A DNA stretch of 18,241 nt from NCBI GenBank assembly GCA_030587475.2, contig JAUQYZ020000060.1, positions 1 to 18,241 on the forward strand, read 5' to 3'. Each line of letters begins with the position of its first letter. The first letter of the stretch is position 1. The stretch comes from Candidatus Sigynarchaeum calidifontis. GTDB lineage: Archaea > Asgardarchaeota > Lokiarchaeia > Sigyniarchaeales > Sigyniarchaeaceae. Under the pieces are notes generated by a model, which saw only the letters and a program-made list of their open reading frames with translations, searched no databases and was not told where the DNA came from. Position numbers and translations under genes: made by a program. Of this stretch, positions 54 through 8,692 are shown piece by piece.

Positions 54-150
54 GAGGCCCGTTCACTTGGGCGGGTCAAACATTAGGATCGCGACTAGGA
101 AGAAGTCGTAACAAGGTAGCCGTAGCGGAAGCTGCGGCTGGATCACCTCC
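54..150 (+). rRNA. 16S (SSU) rRNA 3'-terminal segment (helix 44 tip and 3' strand, helix 45, anti-SD); partial
   Basis: Universal AAGTCGTAACAAGGTAGCCGTA at 103-124. Helix 45 is TAGCCGTAGC-GGAA-GCTGCGGCTG (117-140) and the anti-SD GATCACCTCC is at 141-150. The h44 tip GGCCCGTTC/GGGCGGGTC (56-64/69-77) follows the archaeal GAGGCC...GGTC layout. Bases 1-53 do not match a normal h44 5' strand. Confidence 0.85.
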
Positions 151-274
151 ATGCAGGCTCGCCGCAGGCGGGCCAGGGGGGCCGCGATTGGCATCGGCGG
201 CCGCCAAGAACGCGTGGTGGCTGTGCTATCTCGCTCGCCGTCCCAGCCCGAAAGGTAAAATAGGCGATGCTTGC

Positions 275-2063: not shown

Positions 2064-5000
2064 TTATCTTTTTCCCGCGCGGCATTTACTCGCCAGGTCA
2101 TGCAGGCTCATTCGTTCATAAACGCTCGCGGCAGTTTCTAGCGAATCATTACCGAGAGCGACGTTTCCTTGCTTGAAATAGAGTGGAGCAAGATCAGACA
2201 AGAATTCCGCAGCGTTCTTGAGTGCACCATTTTCCATGTACAATTCGATGGCGGCCCGTCTAAATTTAATGGCTTCATCGACATTTCCGGCCATATCGTG
2301 AGCACGGGAAATGCTTCCCAACGTCCAGGCAACATCGCATATATTCCCCAGACCTCGATTTATTTCTATTGCTTGTTCAAAGCATTGAAAAGCTAGTTCG
2401 AATTGCTTGGCATTTCGGTATGATGTGCCTAGATTCTGGTAACATCTAGCGACGTTAACCGTGTTACCGAGGGTTTTATGGATCTCTAAAGAATCTTGAA
2501 AAAATCTCGTGGAAAGATCGTAGTTTACTTTTTCATACGCAAGCAATCCTGCGGCATAGAGAACGTCGGCCTTTCTTCTTGCATTCTTCGCTTTTTCAAG
2601 AAATGATGCTTCCCGCATGAGCATATCTATCGCGCCGTTAAAATTGCCGGTTACAGACTTAATCTTCGCGAGCTCATCGCATATGTCAGCAGCCAATTGC
2701 CAGTTACTTTTTGACTCGTAAATTTCCAGGGCTTTCAAATAGAATTCCTCTGCTTTGCTAGCAAGATCAAGATTTTTCAATATGAAACCAATGTTCTTGT
2801 AATCATCGGCGATCAAATCAATGTTACCGAGTTTTTCATCTATTTCCTTTGCTTTCAGATAACAATCGACAGATTTTTCTGCATTCTTCAGAAAATAGTA
2901 GTTTTTTCCCTCGTGCTTGAGTGCATCGGAAGCCGCTTTTAAATTTCCAGTCTCTAAATGGATTTTCGAACATCGATCAAACGTGAATATTGCATCCTCG
3001 TGTTGCTTGGCTGCCTCTTGAGCTAAAGCAAGGCTTGTTTGCACTCGCGCCGCGTCTGTCATACTCCCGATTTTTTCGTATAACTCGTTAGCTCGCCGGT
3101 AATAGTCAATCGCAGCGATATAGTTGCCAGCGCGTTCCTCCACGTCACCAATATCATCTAGGGCCTCGGCGAGATTGGAGTAATTGCTTGATTTTTGTAA
3201 ATAATCGATGTTTCGCTGGGCATACACACGCGCACTTTGGATATCGTTGATACGCAGCGAGCAGGTCGTCAGATTATGCAATATGGTAGGGATATTCTTT
3301 TCATCTTTCATCTGCTCGTAAATGGATAATGCTTTGTTGAATGATTCAATGGCACGATGATAATCAGATTTTTCAAATTGCAAGATACCCATTTCGTTGT
3401 AAAGTCGTCCTTTATCAGAGATATTCCCGTGTTCAAGTAAAACATCTTGCGCGGTTGAATACATTGCAATGGCCTCATTATACCTTTTCAAGCCTCTCTT
3501 AGTGTTTCCCAGATCAATTTGAACAATTGCTGCATTCACTTTATCTCCAAGCGAGCTCCAAATCTCGAATGAACGATTGAAATGAGACAATGCATCAATT
3601 AAATCGCCGCGAGTGCTCATGATGATGCCTAAATCGCGTTCGCAGCGAGCAACACCTTTTTTATCCCCGATCTTTTCACGGATGGAAAGTGCGTGCAAAA
3701 CACACTTTTGCCCCTCGTTCAAATTGCCTTTATTAACTAGCAACATCCCTAAGTCGACAAGGCAAGTGCTGAACTCCGAAAGCCGATCCATACTCTTGAA
3801 CAACTCTAGAGCTCTGCGATACCATGCTTCGGCATCATCAAGTAAACCCCGCTTGTATTGAAGAGCAGCGATTTTCTGGTAGATATTAGCGAGTTGCTTC
3901 CCGCGCGCGATGCGTTTTTCCATTTCCAAGGCTTGCTGATACCTTTCAAATGCAATTTCATAATTACCGCGTGATTCGGCAATTCTTCCTAAATTTTGCA
4001 TGATATCGGACATGGCACGTTCATTTTTCATATCTCGCGAAATGCCGAGGGCTTCGTTCATAATCACCTCAGCTTTGTTCAGATTCCCTTCGTGCAAATA
4101 GCACAAGCCGAGATCGGCAAGGGACAGACATAATTGGCCTTTGTCACCAATCCGGCGAGCTAGGTCGATAGATTCCTCGAAAAAAGGCCGTGCAAGATCA
4201 TCTTTTTCTTGAACACGATATATTTCTCCGATAGTTGCAAGCGCGTCCACTTTACTTTTATAATTACAAAGATTATCTATTATCTTCACGCTTTGAATTG
4301 CATAATCCATTGCTTTATCATAATCCCTATTTTCCTTGTAGATATTAGCGATGACTTTCAAGACGTTTGCGTAACCAGAAAGACACCCGAGTTCTTGATA
4401 AATTGCCATGGCCCGGAACATGTGTTTCAATGCTGCGTCATTGAACCCGAGGATGCTTTCAATCATACCGATTTTACTTGTTGTAACGGCTATGCTCATC
4501 AGATCGGTTCCCGATCTTTGCTTGATCTCGAGAGATTGTTGCAAAAGACCTTTCGCATCGTTGTATCGTGCAAGATCGATATACACGTCGCCTATATTAG
4601 CAAGGATCACGGCACGAGCATCATTCTCTTCGGGAGATTTTCGCAAGGACAGCGATTTTTCTAAATATTTAAGCGCCACATCATATATTTCTTGATCCTT
4701 GAACAACAAGGCTATGTTATTCAAGATAGCCGGGATCACGTGAGATTTACCTGCCTTCTCTGCTATCTCGAGCTCTTGAAATGCGCAACGCAAGGCATCG
4801 TCTATATGCCCGGTATCTTTATATATTTTGTACGCGATATAATAACGCAAGCTTTCATCTGGGGCTTTAAGCTTCTCACGCAAATAAGAAATTGGTGAAA
4901 TAGCGAACGGAACTTTGTCGACGCTTGGGAACTCGTCTTTAACAATGTCATGTATCACCCGTGAAATGTTAACATCCACGCGATAAACGTGATCGACATT

Positions 5001-5846
5001 TCCCATCACTTTAATCTCTGCCAGTATTCGTCCTACCTTGTCAAGTGATTCGAGATCGGGATTCACATCACCGGGCACTTCCATGATCTTTGCTTTTCCC
5101 TCGTCGTCGAACACGTGATTAACCCAAGCGACCCCTGTAAGTCCTTTCAAAGCTTTTAGCGTGGGGACGACATCAAAATCATCACTTCCAGAATATCCAA
5201 TTATCACGAGCATTCGCTCATACGTGAGATTATCAATGAGTTTTTTCTTGAATGGCTCGATTGAAAACATATTTTGGCCTTCTTTGTTCGATCCGAAGGC
5301 TTGAATGGTCGCGACCAGGGATTTTCTCGTTGAATCTCCCGTTATGATGTTTTCAGTCGACCCGTGGATCTTGTACAGCACCTTCTTGCCTTGCATAACA
5401 TCTTCGACAGGATCTACGTGTTTTTCGAAGTCCGCGCGCGTTATCACCACTATAATATCATCCTTTGGCACTCCCAAGAGCAGCAATGCTCTTTCGATCA
5501 AGAAATCGAAATTGGTTGTCATTATGTAGTTTCCGGCTAATATATTACGAGCTAGAAAAAAATGTTGAGAATTGGGACGATCACACAAGGTAAAATAATC
5601 GATGACATTCAAGTCGGGATCGATGGTATCACGTAATATTTCAACAAGACCCTCGAACCGCAATTCTTTTAGGTTCTTGATCTTCTCACGTTCCTCTTCT
5701 GGAGCGACAAAATTGATCATGGCATCCATCATGGCACGGCCACTGGGTTGATTTGATGGAAGGTCAATAGAACATCCAGCACCCACGAGGAACAAGAGCT
5801 TTCTCCCACTACCAATTATATCATCAGGAAAGAACGAGATTGGCAT
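2064..5846 (-). CDS. SIR2-like (SIR2_2-type, putative NADase) domain fused to a long TPR solenoid
   Basis: N-terminal motifs LFLVGAGCS, IMTTNFD, LYKIHGS and LVIIGYSGSDDFD. From about aa 330 there are roughly 20+ repeats of ~40 aa of TPR type (e.g. NNIALLFKDQEIYDVALKYLEKSL, QNLGRIAESRGNYEIAFERYQQAL). No Walker A or STAND NTPase seen between the domains. Confidence 0.9.
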   Translation of the reverse strand: MPISFFPDDIIGSGRKLLFLVGAGCSIDLPSNQPSGRAMMDAMINFVAPEEEREKIKNLKELRFEGLVEILRDTIDPDLNVIDYFTLCDRPNSQHFFLARNILAGNYIMTTNFDFLIERALLLLGVPKDDIIVVITRADFEKHVDPVEDVMQGKKVLYKIHGSTENIITGDSTRKSLVATIQAFGSNKEGQNMFSIEPFKKKLIDNLTYERMLVIIGYSGSDDFDVVPTLKALKGLTGVAWVNHVFDDEGKAKIMEVPGDVNPDLESLDKVGRILAEIKVMGNVDHVYRVDVNISRVIHDIVKDEFPSVDKVPFAISPISYLREKLKAPDESLRYYIAYKIYKDTGHIDDALRCAFQELEIAEKAGKSHVIPAILNNIALLFKDQEIYDVALKYLEKSLSLRKSPEENDARAVILANIGDVYIDLARYNDAKGLLQQSLEIKQRSGTDLMSIAVTTSKIGMIESILGFNDAALKHMFRAMAIYQELGCLSGYANVLKVIANIYKENRDYDKAMDYAIQSVKIIDNLCNYKSKVDALATIGEIYRVQEKDDLARPFFEESIDLARRIGDKGQLCLSLADLGLCYLHEGNLNKAEVIMNEALGISRDMKNERAMSDIMQNLGRIAESRGNYEIAFERYQQALEMEKRIARGKQLANIYQKIAALQYKRGLLDDAEAWYRRALELFKSMDRLSEFSTCLVDLGMLLVNKGNLNEGQKCVLHALSIREKIGDKKGVARCERDLGIIMSTRGDLIDALSHFNRSFEIWSSLGDKVNAAIVQIDLGNTKRGLKRYNEAIAMYSTAQDVLLEHGNISDKGRLYNEMGILQFEKSDYHRAIESFNKALSIYEQMKDEKNIPTILHNLTTCSLRINDIQSARVYAQRNIDYLQKSSNYSNLAEALDDIGDVEERAGNYIAAIDYYRRANELYEKIGSMTDAARVQTSLALAQEAAKQHEDAIFTFDRCSKIHLETGNLKAASDALKHEGKNYYFLKNAEKSVDCYLKAKEIDEKLGNIDLIADDYKNIGFILKNLDLASKAEEFYLKALEIYESKSNWQLAADICDELAKIKSVTGNFNGAIDMLMREASFLEKAKNARRKADVLYAAGLLAYEKVNYDLSTRFFQDSLEIHKTLGNTVNVARCYQNLGTSYRNAKQFELAFQCFEQAIEINRGLGNICDVAWTLGSISRAHDMAGNVDEAIKFRRAAIELYMENGALKNAAEFLSDLAPLYFKQGNVALGNDSLETAASVYERMSLHDLASKCRAGKR

Positions 5847-5882: not shown

Positions 5883-6156
5883 AATGCATTATTCCTCGAA
5901 CCCTTCCAGACCGCGTGTTAATTGGGTGAAACCGGATTCAAAAACCGAACATTATCGTCATTCTCAGCCACCAGCAACGCTGGGACACTATCACGCCTGA
6001 GATCACGCCCAATCGAGCGTTATAGCCACCTTTTACAATAAAGTCGATAGGATTGCAAGTTTTAAACGAAATGAACACCACAGACGTACGCCCCTCTTTA
6101 ATGGTTGTATCAAGATATTAAAAGAAAAAGCAGATAAAAAAGACCCCCAATGCAAA

Positions 6157-6270
6157 TTACCCAGGGATCATGCAACCCGGATCGCTCACGCCACCCATGA
6201 AAGAGGAGATACCGATAGTCACTGCCAATACCAACATGAGCATCGCAAGCAATTTTTCTAACTTGTCCAT
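6157..6270 (-). CDS. 37-aa secreted or membrane peptide, copy 1: MDKLEKLLAMLMLVLAVTIGISSFMGGVSDPGCMIPG
   Basis: GGGTG RBS upstream. 32/37 aa identical to the paralog at 7119-7232, with 9 synonymous codon changes versus 5 aa changes, no indels, and the same start and stop positions. Confidence 0.85.
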   Translation of the reverse strand: MDKLEKLLAMLMLVLAVTIGISSFMGGVSDPGCMIPG

Positions 6271-6375
6271 GGTCATGGAACACCCGATGTAGATATATGA
6301 GGCGCTCGTGCCGAATCGCATGGGAATCGTACAAGACAGCACGACGAGCAGCTTCTCACTCGAATCGCTCGAACT

Positions 6376-6383
6376 CATATAAA
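6376..6383 (-). promoter_or_regulatory. TATA box of peptide gene copy 1
   Basis: TTTATATG about 106 nt upstream of the ATG, at the same position as TTTATATA in copy 2. Confidence 0.65.
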
Positions 6384-6434
6384 CCACGATGGGAAATTAC
6401 GCGAATGGATCTCTCTATGTTGAAGCGGGTCGAA

Positions 6435-7049
6435 CTATTGGATCGAATTTACGTTTTTTTTCCACAGGAGACGCACCCGGTTGGCTGGTACATCCCCCCA
6501 CTCGCGACTGTCTGGAAGGAAATCCTCCTTGAATCCAAGCTTGCGCCCGATGGCCAGCATTGGCAGGTTATCCCTCGTGGTTTCAAAAAAAAGCTCTGTA
6601 ATGGTTGGCTGGAACATCTTGTCGAGGTTATCTTGAACGTGCTTGACAACATGATATCCGATTCCTTGCCCCCGGCAGGATTTTACCAACGCGATCCCCA
6701 TCACCTTCCGAGTTGAAGAAATAACACTTTTCGTCATGAGCAGATAACCTACTAACAAAAACTCATGATTGCTTATGCCATAAAACAACGGTTCCATTAT
6801 CGAAGGGAATACCATTTGAAACCAATGCCTGGTCCTTCTCCCTTGATATCGAACATTAGCAATCGTTTTTCCTTCAGCAGCCAAGTCCATAATTGCATGT
6901 AGTATAATATCCATAAAGATTTCGCTCGATCCATCCAATTGAGAAAGCATGAAAGAACCAGATCTATCCGGAATATCAAGTCGAGCGCGATAGCCATCCT
7001 TTTTAATGAACTCGTGAGGATTGCACGCCTTGAACGAAAGGAATACCAT
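6435..7049 (-). CDS. GNAT-family N-acetyltransferase (RimJ/RimL-like C-terminal half)
   Basis: Acetyl-CoA motif A GIALVKSCRGQGIG and motif B ETTRDNLPMLAIGRKLGF. A GAGGAG RBS favours the ATG at 7049 (MVFLSF, 204 aa) over the track's 7079. Confidence 0.85.
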   Translation of the reverse strand: MVFLSFKACNPHEFIKKDGYRARLDIPDRSGSFMLSQLDGSSEIFMDIILHAIMDLAAEGKTIANVRYQGRRTRHWFQMVFPSIMEPLFYGISNHEFLLVGYLLMTKSVISSTRKVMGIALVKSCRGQGIGYHVVKHVQDNLDKMFQPTITELFFETTRDNLPMLAIGRKLGFKEDFLPDSREWGDVPANRVRLLWKKNVNSIQ

Positions 7050-7118
7050 GGACACTCTCTCCTCAATAATTAAACTCATAATAAAAGGGAAAAAGTGAAT
7101 AAAAAAGCATTGAAAAAA

Positions 7119-7232
7119 TTAACCAGGAATTGTACAACCCGGGTCGCTCACGCCACCCATGAAGGAGGAGATACCGATGGTCACTGCCAATACCAGCACG
7201 AGGATCGCGAGCAATTTCTCTGACTTTTCCAT
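7119..7232 (-). CDS. 37-aa secreted or membrane peptide, copy 2: MEKSEKLLAILVLVLAVTIGISSFMGGVSDPGCTIPG
   Basis: AGGTG RBS 10 nt before the ATG. Mostly synonymous divergence from copy 1. An oligo-T tract follows the stop. Confidence 0.85.
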   Translation of the reverse strand: MEKSEKLLAILVLVLAVTIGISSFMGGVSDPGCTIPG

Positions 7233-7339
7233 GGTCGTGAAGCACCTTGCTGCAGTTGCATGAAGTGCTCGTGCCGAATCGCATGGTAATACATTCAAGA
7301 TGGCATAGAGAGCAGCTTCTCGCTCGAATCGTTCGAATC

Positions 7340-7347
7340 TATATAAA
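7340..7347 (-). promoter_or_regulatory. TATA box of peptide gene copy 2
   Basis: TTTATATA about 108 nt upstream of the ATG. Confidence 0.65.
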
Positions 7348-7410
7348 GCACGATGAGAAATGATGCGAGTATATCGCCTTCCATGTAGGCCGGGATGAAT
7401 TTTTTGCTTC

Positions 7411-7505
7411 CGATTGGAATGTAGTGGTACCACGATGTAGCCGCAGCGGAAGTCGCGGCTGGATCACCACAATGCAGTCTCGCACAAGGCGGGGCAAGGA
7501 GGGGG
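7411..7505 (+). repeat. Degenerate second copy of the 16S rRNA 3' end and trailer
   Basis: 7437-7483 matches 116-162 at 41/47 nt without gaps. Weaker similarity extends upstream (gtagtggtaccacg vs gaagtcgtaacaag) and downstream (aggcggggca vs aggcgggcca). Confidence 0.85.
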
Positions 7506-7585: not shown

Positions 7586-8692
7586 TCAATCTTGCGCGTC
7601 TTTTATCTTGGAACGAGCATAGCCGCGAGGATTCCGCTTTCCTCGATGCTCCTGCGCCTCACGTGCCCTCAAGGCAAGATCTCGAAAAGATTCCTCCACG
7701 TGTTCGCCCGTGAACGCGGACGTGAGAAACACGCGACAAGATAATTCTTGAGACAAGTTGCGGATTTCTTCATCGCTAACAGCACGTTTTTCGGACATGT
7801 CGAGTTTATTTCCGATAACATGGCACGGGACGTTTCCAAGGACCGAAATTGCATCATCGTGCCAAGCCTTGACGTTTTTAAATGTTTCATGACTCGTTAG
7901 GTCAAAAACGATGATGATACCTTGTGCCCCCTTGTAGAAATTCTTCCGGGCTCTACTAAACTTCGATTGACCAGCGATATCCCAGAAAACGAGTTCTATT
8001 TTTTCGCATCCGATATTCAAAACTTTATCACTCAAGTTCGTTCCGATTGTAGGTAGATATGTCTGGCGAAAAGCATTATCGGTGAATCGAAGAATGAGTG
8101 ATGTTTTCCCGACCGCCGGATCGCCGATCACGATGATCTTGTACACGGAATCCATTTCTTTATTGTTACCAGCTGTGCCTGATTCATCAGGGAATTCGTC
8201 GTCACCATTTCGTCCTAATTCATGCGAACGCAGTTCCTCTAACCGGTGCGTCATGGTCCTGAAAAAAGCATCAATGAGTGGTTGTTTCACGGGATGCTTA
8301 TTTTTCTCGAGTTCAACAATTTCTTTTGCATAATCATCGAAAATTTTTTCGAAATCAATTAAATACTTGTAAAAAATAGCATCGCTTGTCTCGCCGATGA
8401 TCAACGACAGCGTCGACAATCCGCGAAAACCACGCGAACCAGGATCTTGATATGCAAGGCAACGCACGACGATTTTAGCGGCAGCGTCCGGAAGAGGCAA
8501 GATGGCAAGTTTCTCGGGCACGGAATCTGATCCAGAGATGATATTCATCGAGGTGATAGCGTATTTGTCGACTAAATCCTTCTCCAAAGACGGGTACCAA
8601 ACAGCAGGAACGGGGCCAATGCGCTGGTCAAACTTGGAATACACGGCAGCCTGGATGATTTTTGTACCCAATAGCTCGTTCATTTTTTTCAT
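7586..8692 (-). CDS. Rab-like small GTPase with an N-terminal longin/uDENN-like domain (Asgard eukaryotic-signature-type protein)
   Basis: G1 GDPAVGKT, G2 PTIG, G3 WDIAGQ, G4 NKLD and G5 TSA are in the C-terminal half. The N-terminal YSKFDQRIGPVP resembles the F-D-x(2,3)-G-P start of longin/uDENN domains. No C-terminal cysteine prenylation motif. Confidence 0.88.
   Translation of the reverse strand: MKKMNELLGTKIIQAAVYSKFDQRIGPVPAVWYPSLEKDLVDKYAITSMNIISGSDSVPEKLAILPLPDAAAKIVVRCLAYQDPGSRGFRGLSTLSLIIGETSDAIFYKYLIDFEKIFDDYAKEIVELEKNKHPVKQPLIDAFFRTMTHRLEELRSHELGRNGDDEFPDESGTAGNNKEMDSVYKIIVIGDPAVGKTSLILRFTDNAFRQTYLPTIGTNLSDKVLNIGCEKIELVFWDIAGQSKFSRARKNFYKGAQGIIIVFDLTSHETFKNVKAWHDDAISVLGNVPCHVIGNKLDMSEKRAVSDEEIRNLSQELSCRVFLTSAFTGEHVEESFRDLALRAREAQEHRGKRNPRGYARSKIKDAQD

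Follow-up and report, generated by a model that had tools for sequence, protein, structure and literature searches.

The window analysed here is an 18,241-nt stretch of the genome of Candidatus Sigynarchaeum calidifontis (GenBank GCA_030587475.2, contig JAUQYZ020000060.1). In its central part the minus strand carries two 37-codon peptide genes and one intact gene for a GNAT acetyltransferase, arranged within a duplicated unit:

5938-6081, minus strand: truncated GNAT remnant (tblastn 61% over 33 aa, E 6e-6)
6010-6439, minus strand: duplicated unit, copy 1, with promoter, peptide, likely terminator and GNAT start (local alignment)
6117-6156, minus strand: oligo-T tract 3' of peptide 1, aligned across paralogs
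6157-6270, minus strand: peptide gene 1, 37 aa, tail ending GVSDPGCMIPG
6281-6284, minus strand: GGTG ribosome-binding site of peptide 1, 10 nt 5' of the ATG
6376-6383, minus strand: TATA-like box of unit 1, by sequence, aligning with the box of paralogous units
6435-7049, minus strand: GNAT acetyltransferase, 204 aa, single domain, RimJ/RimL-like fold (gene call P0001)
6977-7404, minus strand: duplicated unit, copy 2 (local alignment)
7080-7118, minus strand: oligo-T tract between peptide 2 and the GNAT, in the same place in all paralogs
7119-7232, minus strand: peptide gene 2, 37 aa, with a Lys in the N-terminus, a hydrophobic stretch at residues 7-21 and a tail ending GVSDPGCTIPG
7243-7246, minus strand: GGTG ribosome-binding site of peptide 2, 10 nt 5' of the ATG
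7340-7347, minus strand: TATA-like box of unit 2, by sequence, aligning with the box of paralogous units
7437-7502, plus strand: degenerate 16S rRNA 3'-end fragment just upstream of unit 2, a direct repeat of 116-181

The two copies of the unit are ~76% identical by local alignment. Each spans ~430 bp rather than the ~290 bp of the original prediction and takes in the 5' end of the GNAT gene, which explains the GNAT remnant downstream of peptide gene 1. The first ~25 codons of this remnant are homologous to the start of the GNAT, the rest is unrelated, and a stop follows at 47 codons. Instead of a peptide pair bracketing one GNAT, as first proposed, the locus is a peptide-to-GNAT cassette that has been duplicated repeatedly. 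A third copy lies on contig C173, where the GNAT is intact and 51% identical to that of the window, and sister assemblies extend this contig by one more GNAT, two more peptides and another GNAT remnant. The locus is >99.9% identical in three sister assemblies and is therefore no assembly artefact.

The block holding the cassette is enclosed by 16S rRNA 3'-end fragments in direct repeat (window 54-181 and 7437-7502). The left fragment is only ~170 nt long, and the sister assemblies L009 and L011 diverge past it. Two 16S 3'-end fragments (1198-1280 and 2945-2990) also lie beside a separate peptide-GNAT cassette in L012, and from these arrangements the 16S 3' end looks like an integration hotspot in at least two genomes. 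Elsewhere in the window are an MNT-HEPN toxin-antitoxin pair (1050-1710) and a 1,260-aa SIR2-TPR protein (2064-5846), on a stretch of 43-44% GC compared with 54% for the genome that is a candidate defence island. The window also contains a 142-aa ORF with a 7-residue tandem repeat (188-616), and a similar repeat protein adjoins another GNAT-clade gene in L200. A small Ras/Rab-like GTPase with an N-terminal extension of ~180 aa (7586-8692) appears as two gene calls in sister assembly L010.

The two ORFs differ at 15 of 114 nt, with nine synonymous and five non-synonymous codon changes and no indels, as had been counted from the letters alone. Third codon positions hold 11 of the 15 differences, and dN/dS between the two peptides is 0.14 (Fisher p=4e-4). 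This third-position bias is missing from four of the five other frames, and the frame of antisense codons shows a weak mirror of it. Across all measurable pairs among ten copies of the lineage, dN/dS ranged from 0.05 to 0.48. Purifying selection thus bears out the claim that both 37-codon ORFs are real peptide genes, and on this pattern of substitution we regard their status as practically certain. The ORF track holds them solely within longer ORFs of 76 and 104 aa, as the original prediction had noted. Gene callers skip or mis-start such ORFs, and the family is easily overlooked. The signals proposed around the genes also stood up to comparison, since the TATA-like boxes, GGTG sites and oligo-T tracts all align among paralogs. 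The distance from box to peptide ATG is 106-108 nt, and GGTG can pair with the CACC at the 3' end of 16S rRNA (window 144-150). The oligo-T tract 3' of peptide 2 is likely to act as a terminator. No Rfam family lies over either unit, and neither the peptides nor their leaders gave a Pfam or NCBIfam match above cut-off, consistent with the expectation of a new family.

The GNAT gene starts 69 nt past the stop of peptide 2. Its product matches Pfam Acetyltransf_1 above cut-off (E 8e-5), and in the predicted structure (pLDDT 82) residues 17-202 are covered by GNAT structures, with fold matches at Z 12-14 and rmsd 3-4 A. The acetyl-CoA motif A (R/QxxGxG) is conserved as RGxGIG, which places the protein in the GNAT superfamily. 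It is a single domain in which no RRE was seen, and many RiPP GNATs lack an RRE domain. Protein and N-alpha acetyltransferases come closest in sequence among solved structures, at weak scores, and MccE is among the fold matches. The fold leaves the substrate unspecified at the level of the model, and a predicted complex of the GNAT with CoA and the precursor scored 0.03, which weighs neither way. The clade comprises 13 known proteins of 41-71% identity, including one homologue labelled Ca. Sigynarchaeota, and is limited to one family.

A peptide gene adjoins all 12 GNAT-clade genes with readable flanks, directly upstream in 10 (one of these counted from a called 37-aa gene alone, unverified) and directly downstream in two. 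The spacing from upstream peptide to GNAT is 69-259 nt where measured. At loci fetched after the link had been proposed, the peptide was present in 5/5 informative cases. The tight linkage expected from the co-occurrence check was therefore found within this lineage, although it does not extend family-wide, the peptide family being mostly GNAT-free. An expected link to a TPR gene did not hold, because the SIR2-TPR gene of the window is not conserved beside other copies. The neighbourhoods of the cassettes differ (Rab-like GTPase and SIR2-TPR; TPR and Fic; pyrI and galK; a methyltransferase; UroD and a resolvase), which indicates that peptide and GNAT move together. Because the genes of the GNAT clade are related to one another, co-duplication may account for part of the linkage.

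These data bear on whether the GNAT acts on the peptide or is a regulated passenger or output gene with another substrate, riding on the strong promoter of a peptide that is itself a signal precursor. G001 and one locus of G002 have the peptide but no GNAT, and in two cases the GNAT beside an intact peptide has decayed. A generic RimJ/RimL-type fold, and an extracellular core that a cytoplasmic enzyme could not reach, would also suit a passenger. Against this, all 12 informative clade genes keep their peptide across differing neighbourhoods, peptide and GNAT have decayed jointly in L202, where a deletion removes the tail of the peptide and a stop interrupts the GNAT, and an unrelated GNAT is fused to or lies beside a ThiF gene and a gene for a ~1,200-aa protein (both described below) in G012 and G036. 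We consider a passenger GNAT rather unlikely, and hold it somewhat probable that the GNAT acts on the peptide.

The peptide family reaches well beyond this lineage. Iterated profiles (E<=0.001) found it in at least 41 of the 161 genomes of the class and nowhere among 239 other Asgard genomes; peptide gene 2 itself matches the family profile at E 2e-18. A profile of divergent members reached 58/161 genomes at E<=0.01, a few weak matches among them probably not being real. By these profile matches the family is order-wide. In family f2 no clear match came from the three genomes that are complete or in a single contig, and a profile built from the lineage alignment recovered nothing but three lineage members and a long repetitive protein. 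The sole match in the ESM Atlas (0.77) was to a 36-aa cluster without a name. An arbitrium-like phage origin found no support, as no relatives were confirmed among viral contigs.

Members are 35-40 aa long, and most are encoded by stand-alone genes that have a TTTA(A/T)ATA box as well as an oligo-T tract. Their sequences begin with a Lys-containing stretch, continue with ~15 hydrophobic residues and finish in a tail of small residues whose end is P or Px. The predicted charged N-terminus was confirmed only in part, for charges are present yet the net charge is neutral in this lineage. One group of the family carries GVSxPGC, and others are Cys-less with GGP-like tail ends. Conservation is strongest in the tail, where V, P, G and C are invariant; some positions of the helix are invariant too. 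Two cases stood apart from this general picture. In L079 (3151-3327, genome G085) the peptide gene is interrupted by two in-frame insertions of ~30 and 27 nt, which are candidate introns, insertions or assembly errors. In G019 (L062, L085), placed in another family, the peptide locus is syntenic with those of genus g16 and the genome also has a ThiF-clade gene, a candidate case of transfer or bin contamination.

The genomic contexts of the family argue against two other explanations. In one, the peptide would be a cis-acting leader whose translation governs read-through into the downstream gene; the succession of peptide, oligo-T tract and GNAT is indeed that of an attenuator, at the spacings given above. 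Across the order, however, there is no constraint on which gene follows the peptide or on how that gene is oriented, some loci have two or three peptides in tandem, and selection acts on amino acids and not on codons, which makes a leader peptide hardly credible. In the other, the cassette would serve toxin-antitoxin or defence functions, as a membrane-active peptide toxin with MccE-like self-protection by the GNAT, or as a GNAT toxin checked by the peptide. The cassette is mobile and adjoins 16S 3'-end fragments; near it the window has HEPN/MNT and SIR2-TPR genes, and L012 has genes for TPR and Fic proteins. All this would suit such a role, as would the presence of MccE among the fold matches. 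In the GNAT type II toxin-antitoxin systems AtaRT and TacAT the antitoxin is a ~90-aa RHH protein, which is absent here, a 37-aa hydrophobic peptide lying upstream instead. The tail is small and acidic rather than basic, and the peptide occurs without the GNAT and in housekeeping contexts such as pyrI-galK and signal peptidase-Alba, with signal peptidase I and Alba upstream of it in six genomes of three genera. G039 has three unlinked copies encoding an identical peptide (pS 0.5-0.7), which fits a signal better. Comparison with known small membrane toxins gave no Pfam or NCBIfam match above cut-off, in databases that cover short toxins poorly. We judge a toxin-antitoxin role very unlikely.

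In other genomes the peptide is often found beside a gene for a ~1,200-aa protein. In family f4, 118 of 135 genomes encode this protein, mostly in single copy, and 24 of 79 peptide loci in f4 lie <=1 kb from its gene where ~0.06 would be expected by chance, kin among these loci not being independent. The arrangements are divergent, tandem and convergent, with four orientations in several genera, and in G038, G039 and G077 the gene is both single-copy and peptide-adjacent. Most sampled copies of the gene have no detectable peptide nearby. Cys-less paralogs with different tails stand in tandem, divergent from the 1,200-aa gene, at L142 607-1319, L137 828-1336 and L144 3819-4169. The protein gave no Pfam hit and no PDB sequence match. 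Its model (pLDDT 86) contains NirDL/Lrp-AsnC units (Z 14.5) and an N-terminal domain that is zincin-like, with weak to middling matches (Z 7-8). This domain appears to lack HExxH, the consensus in what would be the same register being LLREAY. NirDL is an enzyme, so a regulator is the likelier but not the sole reading of the 1,200-aa protein.

The surroundings of this gene also point to the part of the peptide that would be active. Of 40 loci of the 1,200-aa gene, 29 are without a 37-aa gene, and eight of these 29 have a leaderless ORF of 8-12 codons with a ribosome-binding site and an ending in P or Px; shuffled flanks yield such ORFs at 1%. Seven of the eight are divergent from the 1,200-aa gene, and some, e.g. 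MPGCADATP, closely resemble the family tail. Since leaderless tail-like genes adjoin the 1,200-aa gene, activity probably resides in the final 8-9 residues, and with fair confidence we take the tail of the peptide to be the active ligand. The sequences fit the originally proposed layout of a precursor with a short C-terminal core. A cut after G-V-S would obey the (-3,-1) rule in 14/14 lineage sequences and 17/17 other Cys-type sequences, and two earlier cut sites fit the rule nearly as well. The core has no Lys, and its only free amine would be its new N-terminus. A lipoprotein was rejected, because the Cys is preceded by D-P-G with no lipobox and many family members have no Cys.

Residues 7-28 are uncharged, long enough for a membrane helix that is never cleaved. 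The peptide could accordingly be a single-pass membrane microprotein, with a helix at about 7-28 and a short outer Cys tail, that regulates a membrane protein or oligomerises. The ~22 uncharged residues with small-xxx-small spacing, the net neutral N-terminus in this lineage and the invariant positions within the helix would all suit this, and a conserved membrane partner in cis would be unnecessary. A tail more conserved than the rest would not be expected of such a protein, nor would leaderless genes that resemble the tail only and occupy the same place next to the 1,200-aa gene, and the linked partners resemble soluble enzymes and a soluble regulator. We therefore think an uncleaved microprotein unlikely, and return to the peptide as a precursor of a short C-terminal core.

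Other enzymes accompany the relatives of this peptide. One ThiF clade consists of 16 genes in 16 genomes, 12 of them near the peptide or the 1,200-aa gene, and the gene order is ThiF - B12-radical SAM - peptide in G076 and ThiF - peptide - 1,200-aa gene in G038. Peptide loci elsewhere also hold one B12-radical-SAM clade, one YcaO and MFS transporters. In G012 a GNAT-ThiF fusion, and in G036 a GNAT and a ThiF as two genes, stand directly before the 1,200-aa gene (L130 6139-7734; L149 4840-6435), and the peptides of these two genomes sit elsewhere, away from it. The G036 GNAT beside ThiF was examined as an orthologue of the lineage GNAT and left uncounted, membership of the same clade being undetectable (E 0.02-0.06). 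The ThiF clade is absent from all family f1 genomes (E<=1e-30), and in the genome studied here nothing closer turned up than E1/MoeB-like proteins of ~30% identity, all away from any peptide gene. In this genome, 89% complete, searches found neither the 1,200-aa protein nor a convincing match to profiles of its sub-domains, and the protein is absent from the family to which the genome belongs. AgrB (PF04647) and YcaO were likewise not found in the genome, and no agr genes lie at the locus. None of these four thus supplied a candidate receptor or cyclase in this genome.

The family shares features with several known systems. RRNPP systems (Rap-Phr, PlcR-PapR, Rgg-SHP, AimR-AimP) are the peptide quorum sensing of Bacillota. 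The present genes are like theirs in being tiny, with a hydrophobic N-terminus and a C-terminal core that is short and variable, in often lying divergent to the gene of a large soluble protein that may be a regulator, and in forming paralogous pairs bearing different cores; two family members gave sub-threshold hits to Phr_nterm (E 0.04). They differ in the archaeal host, in the modifying enzymes attached, in a core with PGC and a terminal or penultimate Pro, and in the linked protein, which models as an alpha/beta zincin-like and Lrp/AsnC protein where an RRNPP peptide would have an HTH-TPR receptor next to it. In LCP-RopB, secreted leaderless short peptides act via an intracellular receptor (PMC10518010). 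The 8-12-codon ORFs divergent from the 1,200-aa gene recall this system, but the putative receptor is unrelated to RopB and a similar core also occurs on a 28-residue hydrophobic leader.

A short precursor gene linked to a GNAT (12/12), with ThiF, B12-radical SAM and YcaO elsewhere, is what RiPP clusters in general contain. The pairing of precursor gene and GNAT resembles that of goadsporin GodH (PMC5303826), but the cassette here is without other tailoring enzyme, peptidase or exporter, its leader resembles a membrane-targeting helix, and acetylation would be its counterpart by analogy. ThiF enzymes also make thiolactone peptides, as in GrcB (PMC12596934). As in ThiF and AgrB thiolactones, an invariant Cys lies near the C-terminus, fifth from the end (itself counted) in 14/14 lineage peptides and sixth in most others, and the ThiF clade adjoins the peptide in other genera. 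Unlike in those systems, the dedicated ThiF of the GRC type has no counterpart from that clade among the hits in this genome, AgrB was not found in it, and the locus is without the AgrB and AgrC/A genes of an agr system. By analogy, then, the family would work like RRNPP systems, leaderless communication peptides and minimal RiPP clusters, and on the same comparison it falls outside RRNPP, agr and GNAT type II toxin-antitoxin systems. An archaeal RiPP survey lists YcaO, radical-SAM, lanthipeptide and lasso-peptide clusters, and the parts of it available to us do not mention this family (PMC12144867). Our literature search, from which subscription journals were mostly absent, found no published peptide signal or small-precursor system like this in Asgard archaea.

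Our preferred reading, held with little more than even confidence and built on sequence comparison, is that the locus encodes a short peptide signal precursor and a GNAT that acetylates it, with export, cleavage, acetylation and receptor binding as its putative steps. The hydrophobic N-terminal part would direct the precursor to the membrane and then be removed, probably by a cut after the conserved G-V-S, to free an active core of ~8-9 C-terminal residues, xPGCxxPx. The GNAT, expressed at a lower level behind a leaky oligo-T tract, would N-acetylate the core once it is free, as a step of maturation or, following re-uptake, as an off-switch. GodH offers a precedent, acetylating the N-terminus of its core after leader removal (PMC5303826). 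A cytoplasmic GNAT cannot reach a core released outside; it would therefore act after an intracellular or intramembrane cut, or after re-uptake, and a simple order of export then acetylation would need an extra step. An intracellular regulator would read the core, and in the large sister family this would probably be the 1,200-aa protein.

What appears to be new is the peptide family together with a lineage-specific acetyltransferase cassette, whose function we propose from their conservation and linkage. Archaeal quorum sensing has been called largely unexplored (PMC13464002). We suggest, tentatively, that Lokiarchaeia may possess a peptide communication of their own, in which a Pro-ending core of 8-9 residues, leaderless or carried on a hydrophobic leader, would be diversified by lineage-specific enzymes (the GNAT in this lineage; ThiF, B12-radical SAM and YcaO in others) and sensed by a non-TPR zincin-like/Lrp-AsnC regulator. 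If true, this would be archaeal peptide quorum sensing whose components are unrelated to those of bacteria. A peptide signal in Lokiarchaeia, which live in syntrophy and rank among the closest prokaryotic kin of eukaryotes, would bear on how such cells are coordinated.
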